From: a virus
Taxonomy: Duplodnaviria > Heunggongvirae > Uroviricota > Caudoviricetes
Strand: one strand, 5' to 3'
Virus record (IMG/VR): IMGVR_UViG_2548876961_000004
Length of the DNA: 14,398 bases
Shown: in pieces, positions 1 through 8,976 of the stretch
Position numbering within the stretch: the first letter of the stretch is position 1
Layout of the letters: each line of letters begins with the position of its first letter
Notes under the pieces: generated by a model
The model's input: the letters and a program-made list of their open reading frames with translations, nothing else
What the model was told of the DNA's origin: nothing
Database searches by the model: none
Translations under genes and position numbers: made by a program

Positions 1-80
1 TGTTGGTACTGACTGATGGCGCTCTGGTCTGCGGCATTGTGGTATTGCTGTGGCCGATGATGAAAGAACAGAATGAATAA
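1..80 (+). CDS. 3' end of an upstream ORF (partial; hydrophobic C-terminus ...LVLTDGALVCGIVVLLWPMMKEQNE, stop TAA 78-80); product unknown
   Basis: Open frame from position 3 running to TAA at 78-80; hydrophobic stretch suggests a membrane segment. Only 26 codons are visible, so the call is weak. Confidence 0.3.
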   Translation, partial: LVLTDGALVCGIVVLLWPMMKEQNE

Positions 81-83
81 TTC

Positions 84-113
84 TTGACTTTTTTGTTTAC
101 TGTTTATTAAAAA
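84..113 (+). promoter_or_regulatory. Candidate late promoter (pR'-like): TTGACT at 84-89, A/T-rich -10-like hexamer 17-18 bp downstream (TTAAAA/TAAAAA at 107-113)
   Basis: Perfect -35 hexamer TTGACT (same as recalled lambda pR' -35), moderate -10 match, and a strong intrinsic terminator about 180 nt downstream, matching the lambda pR'-6S RNA-tR' layout upstream of the lysis genes. Confidence 0.35.
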
Positions 114-2123: not shown

Positions 2124-2506
2124 TTATACCCTACACGGGATAACTTAACTGATATCCCTTTTAACGGATAAAGGTATTCAAGCCTGACACATCATGCGCT
2201 GTATCGTCGCTGTATTCCCGCATTAACCATGACCGTAGCCCGACGGGGAACTCCTTCTGCGCGAGTGTGCGGGAATAATCAAAAACGATGCACACCGGGT
2301 TTTTACCGCGCTAATGATTCGCGGGTTTGTCCCTCATGCTCGCCAGTCCTGTGCGGGGGTGGAAGAAACAGGACACTCACACAGATTCTTGTGGGTCGAT
2401 GCTATTCCTTTCTGGATTATCCCGATGCCATTCATGCAAGGGCTGTATCAGACGTTCGTCATGGCTTTCAGGCTGACGGCTCCTCCCGGTGGGGTGGCCT
2501 GCCACG

Positions 2507-2518
2507 GGGCGGGAGCGT
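2507..2518. other. Candidate cosN (cohesive-end site) with variant core GGGCGGGAGCGT, flanked by ACG and CGCGG as in lambda (ACG-GGGCGGCGACCT-CGCGGG)
   Basis: About 17 of 24 positions match the recalled lambda cosN region, with divergence concentrated in the middle of the 12-nt overhang. Location about 175 bp upstream of the small terminase start matches lambda (Nu1 starts about 190 bp from the left end). Confidence 0.4.
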
Positions 2519-2690
2519 CGCGGAAAAAGGCTAGTTTTTGCATTTTTATCGGCCACCATCATCTTTGCATCTTATTGATTATTAATGGTTATTTGTTTTT
2601 TGTATGTCGAATTGAGTGTTTTTTGTTCGACGTCGAACGCGTTTTCTTAAAGTTGTTCGCACGATGCATGTTTAAAGCTCTCCGGAGGAA
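2519..2690 (+). promoter_or_regulatory. Candidate cosB-like terminase-binding region: A/T-rich, direct repeats TGTTTTTTGT (2594-2603, 2617-2626), repeated TTGTTCG motifs, and a perfect 14-bp palindrome GTTCGACGTCGAAC (2625-2638)
   Basis: Repeats read directly from sequence; position between the putative cosN and the small terminase gene is analogous to lambda cosB (R sites plus IHF site). Confidence 0.35.
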
Positions 2691-2692
2691 AT

Positions 2693-3184
2693 ATGGATCA
2701 TGAGTTGAAAAACCTGGTGCTGAATATTAATCAACTGGCGGCTTTATCTGGTCTGCACCGCCAGACTGTCGTGGCAAGACTGAAAAACATTCGTCCCGCT
2801 GGTGGACATGACAAACTCAAGCTATACCGGTTGACCGATATTCTGACTGAATTTATGGGGTTACCACCGCCGGTTGCTGAGGGCGAAATGGATCCACATG
2901 AACGCAAAGCCTGGTATCAGTCTGAACGTGAGCGTCTTAAGTTCGAACAGGAAACGGCACAACTCATTCCGGCCAGTGATGTCAGACGGGAGTTTGCCAT
3001 CTGGGCAAAAGCGGTCGTGCAGGTGCTGGAGACATTACCGGATATTCTGGAACGTGACTGTGGTCTGCAGCCTGCCGCTGTGAGCCGTGTTCAGTCCATT
3101 ATTGATGATCTGCGCGATCAGATAGCCCTGCGGGTGACCGAAGCAGGTGCGGATGATGAGGAGGAATTACAGCAGGAGGAGTAA
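2693..3184 (+). CDS. Terminase small subunit (Nu1-like function; N-terminal HTH DNA-binding domain, acidic C-terminus)
   Basis: 163-aa ORF immediately upstream of and overlapping (TAATG) the large terminase; N-terminal helix-turn-helix-like segment NINQLAALSGLHRQTVVARLKNI; GGAGG RBS 4 nt upstream; synteny cos-terS-terL. Confidence 0.8.
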   Translation: MDHELKNLVLNINQLAALSGLHRQTVVARLKNIRPAGGHDKLKLYRLTDILTEFMGLPPPVAEGEMDPHERKAWYQSERERLKFEQETAQLIPASDVRREFAIWAKAVVQVLETLPDILERDCGLQPAAVSRVQSIIDDLRDQIALRVTEAGADDEEELQQEE

Positions 3185-5286
3185 TGCTGAATCAGGAAAC
3201 CGCAAAGGCAGCACGAACCGATTCAGGTTATATCCTTCGCGCACCGAGACGAATGCGGGTTGCTGATGCCGTTGCTCAGTATATGCGGGTGCCCATGGGG
3301 GCCGGGAACTCAGTCCCGTGGGATCCGCTGGTGGCACCGTATGTTATTGAGCCGATGAACTGCCTGGCCTCGCGTGAATACGACGCAGTGATATTTGTTG
3401 GCCCGGCACGAACCGGCAAGACTATCGGCCTGATTGACGGCTGGGTGATTTACAACGTGATTTGCGATCCTGCGGATATGCTGATCATTCAGATGACGGA
3501 GGAAAAAGCCCGCGAACACTCCAAAAAACGACTCGCCAGAACGTTTCGCGTCAGCCCGGAAGTGGTCAGTCGCCTGAGTCCGAACAAAAATGACAACAAC
3601 GTTTATGACAGAACATTCCTTGCTGGCAACTACCTGAAAATCGGCTGGCCGTCAGTCAATATCATGTCCTCATCAGATTATAAATGCGTGGCGCTGACGG
3701 ATTATGACCGTTTTCCGGAAGATATTGATGGCGAGGGGGATGCCTTCTCTCTTGCCTCAAAACGTACCACCACATTTATGTCCAGTGGTATGACGCTGGT
3801 GGAGAGTTCCCCCGGCAGGGATGTGAAGGATGTGAAATGGCGACGGACTTCACCGCATGAGGCTCCACCAACCACGGGGATACTGTCGCTCTATAACCGT
3901 GGCGATCGCCGTCGCTGGTACTGGCCCTGTCCACACTGTGGTGAGTATTTTCAGCCCTGCGGCGATGTGGTTGCTGGTTTCCGTGATATTGCCGATCCCG
4001 TGCTGGCAAGTGAGGCGGCTTATATTCAGTGTCCTTCCTGTTCAGGACGGATTATGCCTGAACAAAAACGTGAGCTGAACGGACGTGGGGTCTGGTTGCG
4101 GGATGGTGAATCCATCAATGCGGATGGTAGTCGTTATGGTGATCCCCGACGCTCACGTATTGCGTCATTCTGGATGGAGGGTCCGGCAGCTGCTTACCAG
4201 ACACTCTCGCAACTCGTTTACAAACTGCTTACTGCAGAACAGGAATACGAGACAACCGGAAGTGAAGAAACACTCAAGACGGTTATCAATACCGACTGGG
4301 GATTACCTTATCTTCCCCGCGCCAGCATGGAGCAACGAAAAAGTGAACTGCTTGAGCAGCGGGCAGAGCCAGTTCCTTCCAGCAGTGTGCCGGATGGCGT
4401 TAATTTCCTTGTGGCGACAGTGGATGTGCAGGCGGGACGTCATCGCCGTTTTGTGGTTCAGGTAACGGGCTATGGCAGCCGTGGCGAACGCTGGATTATT
4501 GATCGTTACAACATCACGCAGTCATTGCGCGGTGACAGCGACGGTGAGAGCCAGCGAATTGATCCGGCCAGCTATCCGGAAGACTGGGATGTCCTGCTGA
4601 CGGATGTTTTTCATAAAAGCTGGCCGCTGGCCTCCGATCCTTCTCAACAAATGCGACTGATGGCAATGGCGGTGGACTCCGGCGGTGAAGACGGGGTCAC
4701 TGATAATGCCTATAAATTCTGGCGTCGTTGCCGTCGTGATGGCCTTGGTAAACGTATTTACCTGTTTAAGGGCGACAGCATCCGGCGCGCAAAACTGATC
4801 ACCCGTACATTCCCTGATAACACCGGACGAACGGGCCGACGGGCGCAGGCCGCAGGTGATGTGCCGCTCTGGCTTCTTCAGACGGATGCACTGAAAGACC
4901 GGGTGAATAACGCGTTATGGCGTGACTCTCCAGGTCCCGGCTATGTGCATTTCCCTGACTGGCTGGGGAGCTGGTTTTACGACGAACTGACGTATGAAGA
5001 GCGGAGTAGTGACGGGAAATGGAGTAAGCCGGGTCGCGGTGCCAACGAAGCTTTTGACCTGATGGTGTATGCCGAGGCTCTGGTCATTCTGCATGGATAC
5101 GAAAAGATCCGCTGGCCGGATGCACCGGGGTGGGCGAGCCGGGAAACCTGGCTGGAGAGTGTCCCGGACAGTACCGAACCGTCACCCTCACCGGAACCGG
5201 TATCCACGCCTGTTAAAAAACAAAAACGGAAGAAAACAGTAACTGACGATGTTAACCCCTGGCTGACTTCCGGAGGATGGTTATGA
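3184..5286 (+). CDS. Terminase large subunit, lambda gpA family (ATPase plus nuclease)
   Basis: 700-aa product with P-loop/Walker A (VGPARTGKT) and a Cys cluster (CPHCGEYF...CPSCSG) reminiscent of gpA-type terminases; CAGGAGGAG RBS; C-terminal Pro/Ser/Lys-rich tail. Confidence 0.92.
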   Translation: MLNQETAKAARTDSGYILRAPRRMRVADAVAQYMRVPMGAGNSVPWDPLVAPYVIEPMNCLASREYDAVIFVGPARTGKTIGLIDGWVIYNVICDPADMLIIQMTEEKAREHSKKRLARTFRVSPEVVSRLSPNKNDNNVYDRTFLAGNYLKIGWPSVNIMSSSDYKCVALTDYDRFPEDIDGEGDAFSLASKRTTTFMSSGMTLVESSPGRDVKDVKWRRTSPHEAPPTTGILSLYNRGDRRRWYWPCPHCGEYFQPCGDVVAGFRDIADPVLASEAAYIQCPSCSGRIMPEQKRELNGRGVWLRDGESINADGSRYGDPRRSRIASFWMEGPAAAYQTLSQLVYKLLTAEQEYETTGSEETLKTVINTDWGLPYLPRASMEQRKSELLEQRAEPVPSSSVPDGVNFLVATVDVQAGRHRRFVVQVTGYGSRGERWIIDRYNITQSLRGDSDGESQRIDPASYPEDWDVLLTDVFHKSWPLASDPSQQMRLMAMAVDSGGEDGVTDNAYKFWRRCRRDGLGKRIYLFKGDSIRRAKLITRTFPDNTGRTGRRAQAAGDVPLWLLQTDALKDRVNNALWRDSPGPGYVHFPDWLGSWFYDELTYEERSSDGKWSKPGRGANEAFDLMVYAEALVILHGYEKIRWPDAPGWASRETWLESVPDSTEPSPSPEPVSTPVKKQKRKKTVTDDVNPWLTSGGWL

Positions 5287-5495: not shown

Positions 5496-7004
5496 TGGCA
5501 ATTCTTGATGATGTGATTGGCGTTTTTTCACCAGGATGGAAAGCGGCAAGGCTGCGTTCCCGTGCGGTGATCCAGGCTTATGAGGCCGTAAAAACGACGC
5601 GGACACACAAAGCCCGGCGGGAAAACCGAACTGCCGACCAGTTAAGCCAGTACGGGGCCGTGTCGTTACGTGAGCAGGCCCGTTACCTTGATAACAACCA
5701 CGATCTGGTTATTGGTGTATTTGACAAGCTGGAAGAACGGGTGGTGGGGAAAAACGGGATTATTGTCGAGCCACATCCGGTATTACGCAATGGGGCCATT
5801 GCCCGTGATCTGGCAGCGGAGATACGCACCCGATGGAGTGAATGGTCTGTCAGTCCGGAAGTCACCGGGCAGTTTACCCGTCCGATGCTGGAACGTCTGA
5901 TGCTGCGTACCTGGCTGCGCGATGGTGAGGTGTTTGCCCAGATGGTTTCCGGGCGCATAAACAGCCTGACGCCTTCTGCCGGTGTTCATTTCTGGCTGGA
6001 GGCGCTCGAGCCAGACTTTATTCCCATGACCAGTGATGAGAGCAACAGGCTGAATCAGGGCGTGTTTGTTGATGACTGGGGGCGTCCCGAAAAATATCTG
6101 GTGTATAAAAGCCGTCCCGTATCCGGACGGCAGATGGAAACCAAAGAAGTGGATGCAGAGCGAATGCTGCATCTTAAATTTGTTCGCCGTCTGCACCAGA
6201 TGCGCGGGACGTCTTTGTTGTCCGGTGTGCTGATCCGCCTCAGTGCCCTGAAAGAGTATGAGGATTCTGAGCTGACTGCAGCAAGGATCGCCGCTGCTCT
6301 GGGGATGTACATCCGGAAAGGCGATGGGCAGAGCTATGAACCGGATGGTAATGGCAGCAAGGATAAGGAACGCGAGCTTACCATTCAGCCAGGCATTATT
6401 TACGACGATCTGAAACCCGGCGAAGAAATCGGAATGGTGAAGTCGGATCGCCCCAATCCTAACCTTGAAACTTTTCGTAATGGTCAGTTGCGTGCCGTGG
6501 CGGCGGGCAGTCGTCTGAATTTTTTCCAGTACAGCGCGCAACTATAACGGCACTTACAGCGCCCAGCGTCAGGAGCTGGTTGAATCCACTGATGGCTACC
6601 TGATCCTGCAGGACTGGTTTATTGGTGCCGTCACCCGCCCGATGTATCGTGCCTGGCTGAAACAGGCTGTGGCATCCGGTGTTATCAGGCTACCCCGCGA
6701 TCTTGACCGTTCTTCACTGTATACCGCGGTGTATTCCGGACCGGTGATGCCGTGGATTGACCCTGTTAAGGAGGCTGAGGCCTGGAAAATTCAGATTCGT
6801 GGTGGAGCAGCGACAGAATCAGACTGGGTACGTGCAGGTGGTCGTAATCCGGATGATGTCAAACGTCGGCGCAAGGCCGAAATTGATGAAAACCGCAAGC
6901 TGGATCTGGTATTTGATACCGATCCGGCCAGTGATAAAGGAGGCAGCAGTGCCGCAACGAAACGACAGGAGCCGCAGCACACCGACGACCAGTCCGAAGA
7001 ATAA
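5495..7004 (+). pseudogene. Portal protein (lambda gpB-like), interrupted by a frameshift at a T6 homopolymer (6520-6525): N-terminal part in frame 5495..6547, C-terminal part in the +1 frame 6519..7004
   Basis: ATG at 5495 overlaps gpW stop (TGATG). The frame stops at 6545-6547, while the adjoining +1 frame is open from 6519 and encodes a plausible continuation (...SSTARNYNGTYSAQRQELVESTDGYLILQDWFIGAVTRPMYRAWL...). Removing one T from the T6 run restores a single ORF of about 500 aa, the expected portal size. Confidence 0.85.
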
Positions 7005-7017
7005 TTCCTGGTTCAGG

Positions 7018-8976
7018 ATGCAGGCTGGTCACCAGAGTGACGCGGATATTTATATTTATGACGAGATTGGTTTCTGGGGTGTTACAGCGAAGCAGTTTAT
7101 CAGTGATCTGAATGCACTGGGCGATATCACCCACATTAATCTCAATATCAATTCACCGGGTGGCGATGTCTTTGAAGGCATCGCCATTTTTAATGCACTG
7201 AAAACACATGGTGCGTCCATTACCGTTTATGTCGACGGTGTGGCGGCGTCAATGGCGTCGGTCATTGCGATGGTGGGAAAACCGGTCATTATGCCGGAAA
7301 ACTCCTTCATGATGATTCATAAACCATTTGGCTTTACGGGCGGTGATGCGGAGGACATGCGCACCTATGCCGACCTGCTCGATAAAGTTGAGGCGGTTCT
7401 GTTACCCGCTTATGCACAGAAAACCGGGAAAACCACCGATGAAATTGCTGCCATGCTGGCGGATGAGACCTGGATGTCCGGTGCCGAATGTCTGGCACAT
7501 GGATTTGCTGATCAGGTGACGCCAGCCGTTAAGGCAATGGCATGTATTCAGTCAAAACGTACAGAGGAATTTAAAAAGATGCCGGAATCCATTCGAAACA
7601 TGATTACTCCGCCACGCAACAGTGCTCCACGCGTACAGGATGATGGACCTGCAGCCTCCCGGACGCCAGTGCAGGCAGCAGCACCTGTGGTGGATGAAAA
7701 CAGTATCCGTGCGCAGGTACTGGCAGAGCAAAAAGCGCGTGTAAACGGTATTAATGATCTGTTTGCCATGTTTGGCGGGCGTTATCAGACGCTGCAGGCT
7801 CAGTGTCTTGCCGATCCTGAATGTTCGCTGGAGCAGGCCCGCGAAAAGCTGTTGAACGAGATGGGGCGCGAGTCCACGCCATCTAATAAAAATACCCCGG
7901 CTCATATTTATGCCGGAAACGGTAATTTTGTGGGGGATGGGATCCGCCAGGCGCTGATGGCGCGTGCCGGATTTGAAAAAAACGAACGTGATAATGTCTA
8001 CAACGGGATGACCCTGCGTGAATATGCCCGTATGTCACTGACTGAACGGGGTATTGGGGTTTCCAGTTATAACCCGATGCAGATGGTCGGTGCGGCGTTC
8101 ACACACAGTACGTCTGACTTCGGTAATATTCTGCTGGATGTTGCGAACAAAGCCATTCTGCAGGGCTGGGAAGATGCCCCTGAAACCTATGAACAGTGGA
8201 CGCGGAAAGGTCAGTTGTCTGATTTTAAAATTGCCCATCGTGTGGGTATGGGGGGCTTCAGTGCTCTGCGTCAGGTGCGTGAAGGGGCGGAATATAAATA
8301 CGTCACCACCGGAGATAAACAGGCCACTATTGCACTGGCGACCTATGGCGAGCTGTTCAGTATCACCCGTCAGGCCATTATCAATGATGATCTGAATATG
8401 CTGACCGATGTCCCGATGAAACTGGGCCGTGCGGCGAAATCCACTATTGCCGATCTGGTTTATGCCATTCTGACGTCTAACCCGAAAATCTCCACAGATA
8501 ATGTAAGTCTGTTCGATAAAGCGAAACATGCAAACGTACTGGAGAGCGCTGCAATGGACGTGGCATCGCTGGATAAAGCCCGCCAGTTGATGCGCGTTCA
8601 GAAAGAGGGGGAGCGTCATCTGAATATTCGTCCTGCGTTCGTACTGGTACCGACGGCGATGGAGTCTGTTGCTAACCAGGTCATTCGCTCCTCAAGTGTC
8701 AAGGGGGCTGACATTAACGCCGGTATTATTAACCCGGTGAAAGATTTTGCGACCGTTATTGCAGAGCCTCGTCTTGATGATAACAGCCAGACCACCTTCT
8801 ACCTGGCTGCGTCAAAAGGCTCCGATACGATTGAAGTGGCTTATCTCAACGGTGTGGATACGCCATATATTGATCAGATGGAGGGCTTCAGTGTGGATGG
8901 CGTGACAACGAAAGTGCGTATTGACGCCGGTGTCGCGCCAGTTGATCACCGCGGTCTGGTGAAATGTACGGCGTAA
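7018..8976 (+). CDS. Prohead protease (ClpP/S49-like) - scaffold - major capsid protein fusion polyprotein
   Basis: 652-aa product: N-terminal ClpP-like serine protease domain (DADIYIYDEIGFWGV...NINSPGGDVFEGIAIFNAL...VDGVAASMASVIAMVG), central Ala/Pro/Gln-rich linker, C-terminal ~300-aa HK97-fold-type capsid domain. Starts 13 nt after the portal stop; start codon choice uncertain (weak RBS). Confidence 0.85.
   Translation: MQAGHQSDADIYIYDEIGFWGVTAKQFISDLNALGDITHINLNINSPGGDVFEGIAIFNALKTHGASITVYVDGVAASMASVIAMVGKPVIMPENSFMMIHKPFGFTGGDAEDMRTYADLLDKVEAVLLPAYAQKTGKTTDEIAAMLADETWMSGAECLAHGFADQVTPAVKAMACIQSKRTEEFKKMPESIRNMITPPRNSAPRVQDDGPAASRTPVQAAAPVVDENSIRAQVLAEQKARVNGINDLFAMFGGRYQTLQAQCLADPECSLEQAREKLLNEMGRESTPSNKNTPAHIYAGNGNFVGDGIRQALMARAGFEKNERDNVYNGMTLREYARMSLTERGIGVSSYNPMQMVGAAFTHSTSDFGNILLDVANKAILQGWEDAPETYEQWTRKGQLSDFKIAHRVGMGGFSALRQVREGAEYKYVTTGDKQATIALATYGELFSITRQAIINDDLNMLTDVPMKLGRAAKSTIADLVYAILTSNPKISTDNVSLFDKAKHANVLESAAMDVASLDKARQLMRVQKEGERHLNIRPAFVLVPTAMESVANQVIRSSSVKGADINAGIINPVKDFATVIAEPRLDDNSQTTFYLAASKGSDTIEVAYLNGVDTPYIDQMEGFSVDGVTTKVRIDAGVAPVDHRGLVKCTA

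Follow-up and report, generated by a model that had tools for sequence, protein, structure and literature searches.

In phage lambda, cosB has been described as an ordered series of elements, R3-I1-R2-R1 (PMC4669245, PMC9026076). The small terminase subunit (TerS) site and the nick site are separated by about 47 bp as a rule for R3 (PMC9026076, its ref. 26). DUF1441 terminases are shared by Gifsy-2, Fels-1, mEp213, mEp460, LLS and the Stx phages, with TerS identities of 44-87%. The literature on these phages discusses the cosN end only, and our search found no paper dissecting the cosB of any of them or of another DUF1441 terminase. The end deduced for LLS and mEp213, 5'-GGGCGGCGCGCT (PMC12315714), matches two of the related loci described below (L111 and L114, class A). 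In this study, we analyzed a stretch of 14,398 nt (hereafter the window; IMG/VR record IMGVR_UViG_2548876961_000004), whose gene annotation is that of the late region of a lambdoid prophage of E. coli O157:H7. An initial annotation had pointed to short repeats and a palindrome at 2594-2660, just upstream of a terS gene of the DUF1441 family. We conclude that this interval is probably the distal (R2-R1) portion of a lambda-type cosB, the cos subsite for packaging recognition, here serving a DUF1441-type terminase.

The interval lies between a lambda-type cosN and the genes for a DUF1441 TerS and a gpA-type TerL, and is therefore read as cosB. In the window, GGGCGGGAGCGT is flanked by CACG and CGCGG, and the corresponding lambda junction has GGGCGGCGACCT between TTACG and CGCGG. 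The two 12-mers mismatch only at end positions 7, 8, 9 and 11. In addition, two phages, cdtI and Tritos, have linear records whose first base is the one aligned to 2507. From this junction match and these record starts, cosN is placed at 2507-2518 (plus strand), with predicted nicks at 2506/2507 (top) and 2518/2519 (bottom) and a predicted 12-nt 5' cohesive end, GGGCGGGAGCGT. The predicted virion ends share with those of lambda the left half GGGCGG and the CG dinucleotides at both nicks; it has been reported that lambda-type ends conserve the CG flanks and tolerate variation in the half that differs here (PMC4669245). Next to cosN is a flank, CGCGGAAAAAGGCTAGTTTTTGCATTT (2519-2546, plus strand), which is nearly invariant in enterobacterial and Pasteurellaceae relatives. 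On the other side, a cosQ-equivalent heptamer (2478-2484, plus strand) lies as far from the nick as its counterpart in the right end of lambda (...ACGGGTCCTTTCCGG...).

The cos region lies directly upstream of the terminase genes, as in lambda. The terS gene (2693-3184, plus strand) encodes 163 aa that match Pfam DUF1441 (PF07278, E=4.6e-44) and phrog_141, 'terminase small subunit' (E=2.7e-77), and its Shine-Dalgarno sequence GGAGG is read directly at 2684-2688 (plus strand). It is followed by terL (3184-5286, plus strand), a gpA-type large terminase with ATPase and endonuclease domains (Pfam GpA_ATPase, 9.1e-72; GpA_nuclease, 1.9e-85). Counted from cosN, the interval 2594-2660 spans +88 to +154. 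The terS start codon at 2693 is at +187, and the Nu1 start of lambda is at +191, so that in both phages terS begins about 190 bp from the left end and is followed by a gpA-type terL.

For comparison, 80 loci from viral contigs and 66 loci from genomes (one genome per species) were collected, with TerS identities of 38-100%, and their upstream regions were anchored on cosN. These relatives share a common plan after cosN, consisting of the conserved flank, box1, a variable spacer with a TTGAT core, box2 (TGTCGA), an A/T-rich spacer and box3 (GTTC..CA). In an alignment of 12 diverse loci with TerS identities of 60-100% (alignment A1), box1, TTGAT, TGTCGA and TTC..CA are conserved islands and the spacers are divergent.

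The first of these elements, box1 (GGCCACCATCAT; 2551-2562, plus strand), is upstream of the interval that had been flagged and outside it. We propose box1 as the R3 analogue and primary TerS site because of its fixed offset, its invariant positions and its covariation with the DNA-binding domain (DBD) of TerS. The distance between its centre (2556.5) and that of cosN (2512.5) is 44 bp, and the first R-type site of lambda is likewise about 44-50 bp from cosN. Box1 thus occupies the position that the R3 rule prescribes, where TerS would be expected to bind. In 54 distinct loci, its offset from a GGCTAG anchor is 22-28 nt. In alignment A1, columns 2554, 2557, 2558 and 2560 are invariant, and 2561 is invariant or near-invariant. 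Among 36 window-clade haplotypes, neither box1 nor the IHF core described next shows any recurrent polymorphism. Box1 is the best-conserved element and the one with the most constant offset, which recalls the simple cosB of N15 with its single critical R3. Unlike N15, the window and its enterobacterial relatives have a complex cosB, in which an IHF site and two more boxes are retained.

The I1 analogue is an IHF-consensus site on the minus strand at 2568-2580 (AATCAATAAGATG), one mismatch from WATCAANNNNTTR. A scan for this consensus had been suggested in the initial annotation. At up to one mismatch, this is the sole match in 2519-2692, and there are five matches in the whole window on both strands. 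Such matches were present in 31 of the 54 distinct cos intervals (12 perfect, 19 with one mismatch), and all 31 have an anchor distance of 39-41 nt, which places them between box1 and box2. The Pasteurellaceae relatives among these intervals had no IHF-consensus match at the corresponding place. Within the TTGAT region, columns 2569, 2576 and 2577 are invariant in alignment A1 and 2578 is nearly so. As in lambda, therefore, an IHF-consensus site lies between the first and second R-type sites.

Box2, the R2 analogue (ATTCGACATACA; 2601-2612, minus strand), is the positional homologue of the minus-strand box of class A relatives, ATTCGACATCAT. Its conserved core is the first of the TCGAA elements (2605-2611) recorded in the initial annotation; TGTCGA (2605-2610) and column 2614 are invariant or nearly so in the 12 loci of alignment A1. 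Box3, the R1 analogue (2625-2636, plus strand), is GTTCGACGTCGA in the window and GTTCGACATCGA in relatives; it consists of the left half and centre of the palindrome at 2625-2638. Its columns 2624, 2626-2628 (TTC), 2631 (C) and 2632 (A) are invariant or near-invariant in the same alignment. The spacing from box2 to box3 is 13 nt, equal to that in class A. In the ancestral state (A2632), box2 and box3 form an inverted pair with an 8/8 match and the core TTCGACAT; the two TCGA elements, which had been described as direct repeats, are thus inverted with respect to each other. TTCGAC/GTCGAA occurs three times within 2606-2637 and six times in the whole window. The arrangement of a second site that is inverted and a third that is direct is also that of lambda.

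The repeated nature of these sites was observed in the relatives. When each locus was searched with its own box1, the best copies occupied two places relative to the anchor, +71-73 (minus strand) and +89-98 (plus strand), with shuffle P values of <0.0005 (L104), 0.003 (L090), 0.013 (L113), 0.001 (L121) and 0.043 (L037). These orientations reproduce the pattern of lambda R3, R2 and R1 (PMC4669245, PMC9026076). In class A, which comprises 25 distinct loci of Enterobacterales other than E. coli, the 12-mers NGTCATCATCAT (plus), ATTCGACATCAT (minus) and GTTCAYCATCAT (plus) are in register; box1 is of the CATCAT type, box2 reads TTCGACATCAT as its reverse complement and box3 is TTCAYCATCAT. The corresponding elements are CATCACCAC, TCGACACC and TTCAYCAC in class B (L037, L083 and L085-L089). 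In class C (L117 and L121) they are GTGCAGCAGCA, TTGCAGCAAA or TTTCAGCAAA, and GTGCAGCGG or GTGCAGTG. All three boxes shift in concert between the CATCAT, CACCAC and CAGCAG types, and the type follows TerS residue 13 and the recognition helix (HRQT versus NRN). TerS proteins with NINQ...HRQT pair with CATCAT, those with N(I/V)SQ...HRQT and a wing one residue longer than that of the window pair with CACCAC, and those with NV(T/S)Q...NRN(M/L) pair with CAGCAG.

Some arrangements peculiar to individual groups were also seen. In class A loci (L100-L115 and L126; ~1488-1503), box3 (GTTCAYCATCATGG) overlaps the terS start codon, with no obvious Shine-Dalgarno sequence seen, and TerS binding could, judging from this overlap, autoregulate its own translation or transcription. 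In class B cos sites (L037 and others), an inverted repeat, CTGTAAT-N8-ATTACAG, flanks a perfect IHF consensus about 45-75 nt after GGCTAG; it is absent from the window. In the Pasteurellaceae loci L116, L122 and L127 (~1420-1450), box1 (GGCATCATCATC) is followed almost immediately by an inverted copy (for example GTGATGATGTTGCC), without an IHF-like site, and L124 and L128-L132 appear to carry box1 alone, like the simple cosB of N15.

The comparison of the window with the class B locus L037 revealed a sharp mosaic boundary. The two are 96-100% identical in cosQ/cosN (2470-2529) and about 100% identical in terS past codon ~60, and the DNA in between (2530-2860; L037 1338-1670) is merely 60-73% identical. 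At the protein level, TerS identity is 67% over residues 1-60 and 98% over residues 61-163. Since the divergent stretch is enclosed by near-identical flanks, cosB and the TerS DBD appear to have been exchanged as one block. The combination of cosB and TerS residues 1-60 looks like a packaging-specificity cassette that is exchangeable between otherwise identical prophages. This pair resembles phage 21 and lambda, in which cosQ and cosN are identical or near-identical, and the R sites of cosB and the TerS DBD differ (PMC4669245); between the window and L037 the divergent block ends past TerS residue ~60. A more than 1000-fold discrimination has been measured between 21 and lambda, whereas the difference in specificity between the window and class B is deduced from sequence.

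It is possible, although we put it forward tentatively, that DUF1441 terminases carry a family-wide modular packaging code. In such a code, triplet-like R cores (CATCAT, CACCAC, CAGCAG and others) would be paired with variants of the TerS winged helix-turn-helix (wHTH), and cosB and about 60 codons would be swapped together. The TerS variants would differ at residue 13 (N or S), in the recognition helix (HRQT as opposed to NRN or GRNT) and in the length of the wing. Of 5426 complete E. coli genomes, 2158 contain sequences related to this region, at up to seven places each. If the code is real, it could control cross-packaging or parasitism among co-resident O157:H7 prophages, which have up to seven such cos regions per genome. 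With lambda, 21 and N15, three natural packaging specificities have been documented so far, and the code would contribute several more. The natural swaps of cosB and DBD themselves point to several packaging specificities, which are relevant to transduction, cross-packaging and interference between prophages that share a host. The motif that drew attention to this region turns out to be deflationary: its perfect palindrome is a private point mutation and no designed site, and the cosB interval is an ordinary element of known type. The evidence for exchangeable cassettes is a more interesting by-product than the motif.

The TerS protein of the window is consistent with a lambda-like mode of recognition. 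In an AlphaFold2 (AF2) model built from a 42-sequence alignment (mean predicted local distance difference test score, pLDDT, 79.8), residues ~9-55 are predicted to form a wHTH with beta-alpha-alpha-beta-beta-alpha topology at 9-55; a single-sequence model (pLDDT 53) was not used. With a 20-sequence profile, hhalign placed TerS residues 9-54 on the wHTH of Nu1 (residues 2-50) with E=1.3e-4 and a probability of 54%. The PHROG cross-matches between phrog_141 and lambda Nu1 phrog_57 were reciprocal (8.3e-9 and 5.6e-8). The best PDB matches in Foldseek were MerR-type wHTH domains and 6HN7, which is the RppC-lambda TerS N-terminal complex (PMC6739421). Taken together, hhalign, PHROG and AF2 indicate an N-terminal wHTH homologous to Nu1 residues 1-68, as in gpNu1-type proteins. 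On the other hand, a Pfam scan of the window TerS returned DUF1441 and no Phage_Nu1 match, which places the protein outside the Phage_Nu1 family. No NCBIfam model matched the window TerS or lambda Nu1, and a PDB sequence search with TerS gave no match below E=0.78. We read the DUF1441 TerS as a remote sister family of gpNu1 with the same predicted DNA-binding fold.

From the observed positions, conservation, covariation and cassette exchange, and by analogy with lambda, we infer a series of binding, bending and nicking steps. The DUF1441 TerS would bind, through its N-terminal wHTH, to box1/R3 (2551-2562, plus strand) and to the inverted box2/R2 (2601-2612). A bend induced by IHF at 2568-2580 would bring box1 and box2 together, and box3/R1 (2625-2636) may serve as an accessory site. 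The bound TerS would then anchor the gpA-type TerL about 44-47 bp upstream, where TerL is predicted to nick cosN (2507-2518) to leave the 12-nt cohesive ends GGGCGGGAGCGT. In its details the locus differs from lambda. The R sites are unrelated, being of the TTCRHCATCAT type here and of the CGTTTCC type in lambda, and the distances are shorter (R3-R2, about 50 versus 61 bp; R2-R1, about 24 versus 41 bp; lambda measured on L212). TerS belongs to DUF1441 instead of Phage_Nu1, the cohesive end differs at the four positions given above, and an extra conserved element, box4, precedes terS. The result is a testable map (cosQ, cosN, R3, I1, R2 and R1) for lambdoid phages with DUF1441 terminases. This group includes many prophages of E. 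coli O157:H7, Stx-converting phages, Salmonella Gifsy-2 and Fels-1 and other enterobacterial prophages.

The exact forms of the repeats and of the palindrome suggest other readings. The 10-mer TGTTTTTTGT does occur twice, at 2594-2603 and 2617-2626 (plus strand), and nowhere else in the window. The two copies, each with its following TCGAA, had been read as direct repeats that form the recognition unit of the small terminase. An exact 10-mer is expected 0.03 times, at least two copies were found in 0 of 200 shuffles, a repeat search returned a 19-nt direct repeat of 74% identity, and some T-richness is kept 5' of both boxes in several clades. However, phages whose TerS proteins are 100% identical differ in these 10-mers. 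In about 30% of the 36 window-clade haplotypes the second copy is CGGTTTTTGT (2617 T/C, 2619 T/G), and the first is polymorphic at 2595 and 2603 (T/C, about 20%) and has an indel in its tract. In many class A loci AAAAAG or AATATT replaces the second tract, and solely T-richness of the first is kept across clades. The columns that are conserved across clades are TGTCGA and TTC..CA, an inverted pair. On this comparison the two copies are polymorphic, compositional A/T-rich spacers between sites in an interval of 35-42% G+C, and their reading as direct recognition repeats is quite unlikely. The first copy lies 5' of box2 and overlaps its distal edge, and the second separates box2 from box3; as T-rich tracts they may possibly aid DNA bending. 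The palindrome, GTTCGACGTCGAAC at 2625-2638, is likewise as first recorded, a perfect 14-bp dyad, unique in the window and 55 bp before the terS start. As an operator for a dimeric regulator, encoded by phage or host and unrelated to the terminase, it would draw on this perfect symmetry and on an imperfect 6+2+6 dyad, GTTCGA-CA-TCGAAC, which is kept in 64 window-clade contigs. The perfect dyad is private, however: the 25-mer with G2632 is found in one IMG/VR contig and that with A2632 in 64, and the window is the exception among the 12 loci of alignment A1, 11 of which have A2632. The right arm, TCGAAC, is missing outside the window clade (class B reads GTTCATCACTAACAC, and class A continues immediately with the terS ATG), so that the conserved part is the left half only and the dyad is not conserved as that of an operator would be. 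There is also no promoter-like site nearby for a regulator to control; a sigma-70 promoter scan of 2200-2800 gave zero sites. Judged by these alignments, the perfect palindrome and the GACGTC within it are accidental. Both result from a private A>G mutation at 2632, where box3 is near-invariant, in a few O157:H7 strains. GACGTC is the recognition sequence of AatII and is absent in 64 of 65 contigs. Since the perfect dyad and GACGTC are private, both the operator and the restriction-site alternatives fail. We regard the former as very unlikely and a functional restriction-type target as highly improbable. Equally improbable is an intrinsic terminator formed by the palindrome and a T-run. A terminator scan did find one such site, at 2624-2639 followed by CGTTTTCTTA, against 0.7 expected, but the hairpin (-5.4 kcal/mol) has a z of about 0 relative to shuffles and no fold was obtained for the class B sequence, which falls short of a terminator. 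Thus the comparative alignment proposed in the initial annotation showed that the exact forms first noticed, the 10-mers and G2632, are not conserved. The general idea of that annotation, small-terminase sites like lambda R1-R3, is supported by the position between cosN and terS, the IHF site, TGTCGA, GTTC..CA and the covariation with the DBD.

Several observations weigh against the assignment of box2 and box3 to R2 and R1. Relatives of classes A, B and C have three related R sequences with an inverted R2. The window clade has box2 and box3 as an inverted pair, and its box1 (CCACCATCATC) has no significant downstream self-match (P=0.99). A position weight matrix (PWM) built from 75 class A R sites ranks box1 third in the whole window and gives low scores to window box2 (0.1) and box3 (1.4; 8.9 with A2632), and some coding sequence also contains matches of comparable score (at 918 and 9458, among others). 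The PWM therefore provides no evidence of site clustering in the window. The 8-bp inverted match of box2 and box3 is not improbable as a chance event, since we estimate that 174 A/T-rich bases would yield about 0.2 such matches. When 10-mers were compared all against all in a crude test, the diagonal mean was 7.95 versus 7.61 off the diagonal. Given the absent self-match and the low PWM scores, box2 and box3 are taken as TerS sites from positional homology and analogy with lambda, not from repetition within the window. The covariation evidence is qualitative, since the classes are few (3-5 lineages) and kin by descent. The Foldseek E-values are all above 0.03 and the hhalign probability is just 54%. 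Our literature search found no binding, bending or cleavage data for any DUF1441 terminase, and box4 is conserved and yet not accounted for by the cosB model. The same region could be read with box1 as the sole TerS site of an N15-like simple cosB, and with box2 and box3 bound by another factor (TerL, Fis/H-NS or a translation-related element). Window box2 and box3 do match box1 poorly, TerS specificity classes A and B and the window type all have the same GTCGA core, several Pasteurellaceae relatives apparently carry box1 alone, and N15 is a precedent for a single-R cosB (PMC4669245). However, in each of the classes A, B and C the bases beside the constant core follow box1 (GATG/CATC, GGTG/CACC and GCTG/CAGC), and the orientation and spacing of box2 and box3 mirror those of lambda R2 and R1. 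We consider the single-site reading unlikely and retain that of 2594-2660 as the R2-R1 part of cosB.

The A>G change at 2632 probably weakens R1 slightly. A second minor allele is present at the other end of the cos region. The 7-bp cosQ, which we take to be GGGTCCT, reads GGCTCCT in the window. The heptamer is GGGTCCT in lambda and most relatives, and position 2480 is G in 33 of the 36 window-clade haplotypes. Natural cosQ variation has been described as not apparent (PMC4669245). The minor cosQ allele together with the box3 change might lower the packaging competence of this prophage.

Box4 (TAAAGTTGTTCGCACGATGCATGTTTAAAG; 2648-2677, plus strand) is a 30-nt element recognized by its conservation. 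It contains a third TTGTTCG, which had been reported at 2652-2658 and is indeed present, on the plus strand, one base further on at 2653-2659. Between the window and L037, box4 is about 90% conserved within a cassette that is otherwise 60-73% identical. It is common to three E. coli cosB types, absent in non-E. coli relatives, and does not covary with TerS or terminase specificity. A fourth R site, a promoter and a relic of R1 plus a start codon were considered as explanations. Box4 also resembles the class A box3-plus-ATG (AAAAAGTGTTCACCATCATGG).

The surroundings of the cos region are those of a lambdoid prophage. The segment 2480-2720 is 100% identical in five complete E. coli O157:H7 genomes. 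In RefSeq, there is no annotation between the lysis genes and a "DUF1441 family protein" except a 50-aa hypothetical protein at 1866-2018. A search against Rfam returned a single spurious sub-threshold match to a human long non-coding RNA model (24.8 bits versus a gathering score of 50). The stretch of about 600 bp from Rz to cosQ (1878-2500) is without any open reading frame (ORF) matching Pfam. Two ORFs, 2229-2534 and 2314-2703, overlap cos, span cosN and have no Pfam match; they were set aside as probably spurious. By Pfam, the gene order of the window is lysozyme (917-1414), Rz (1399-1878), terS, terL, a lambda-family portal and a ClpP-capsid fusion. The last of these is a single ORF of 739 aa (6757-8976), in which a ClpP-type protease domain and a capsid domain are joined, and it resembles the fused prohead-protease/coat-protein gene of Gifsy-2 (cited in PMC12315714).

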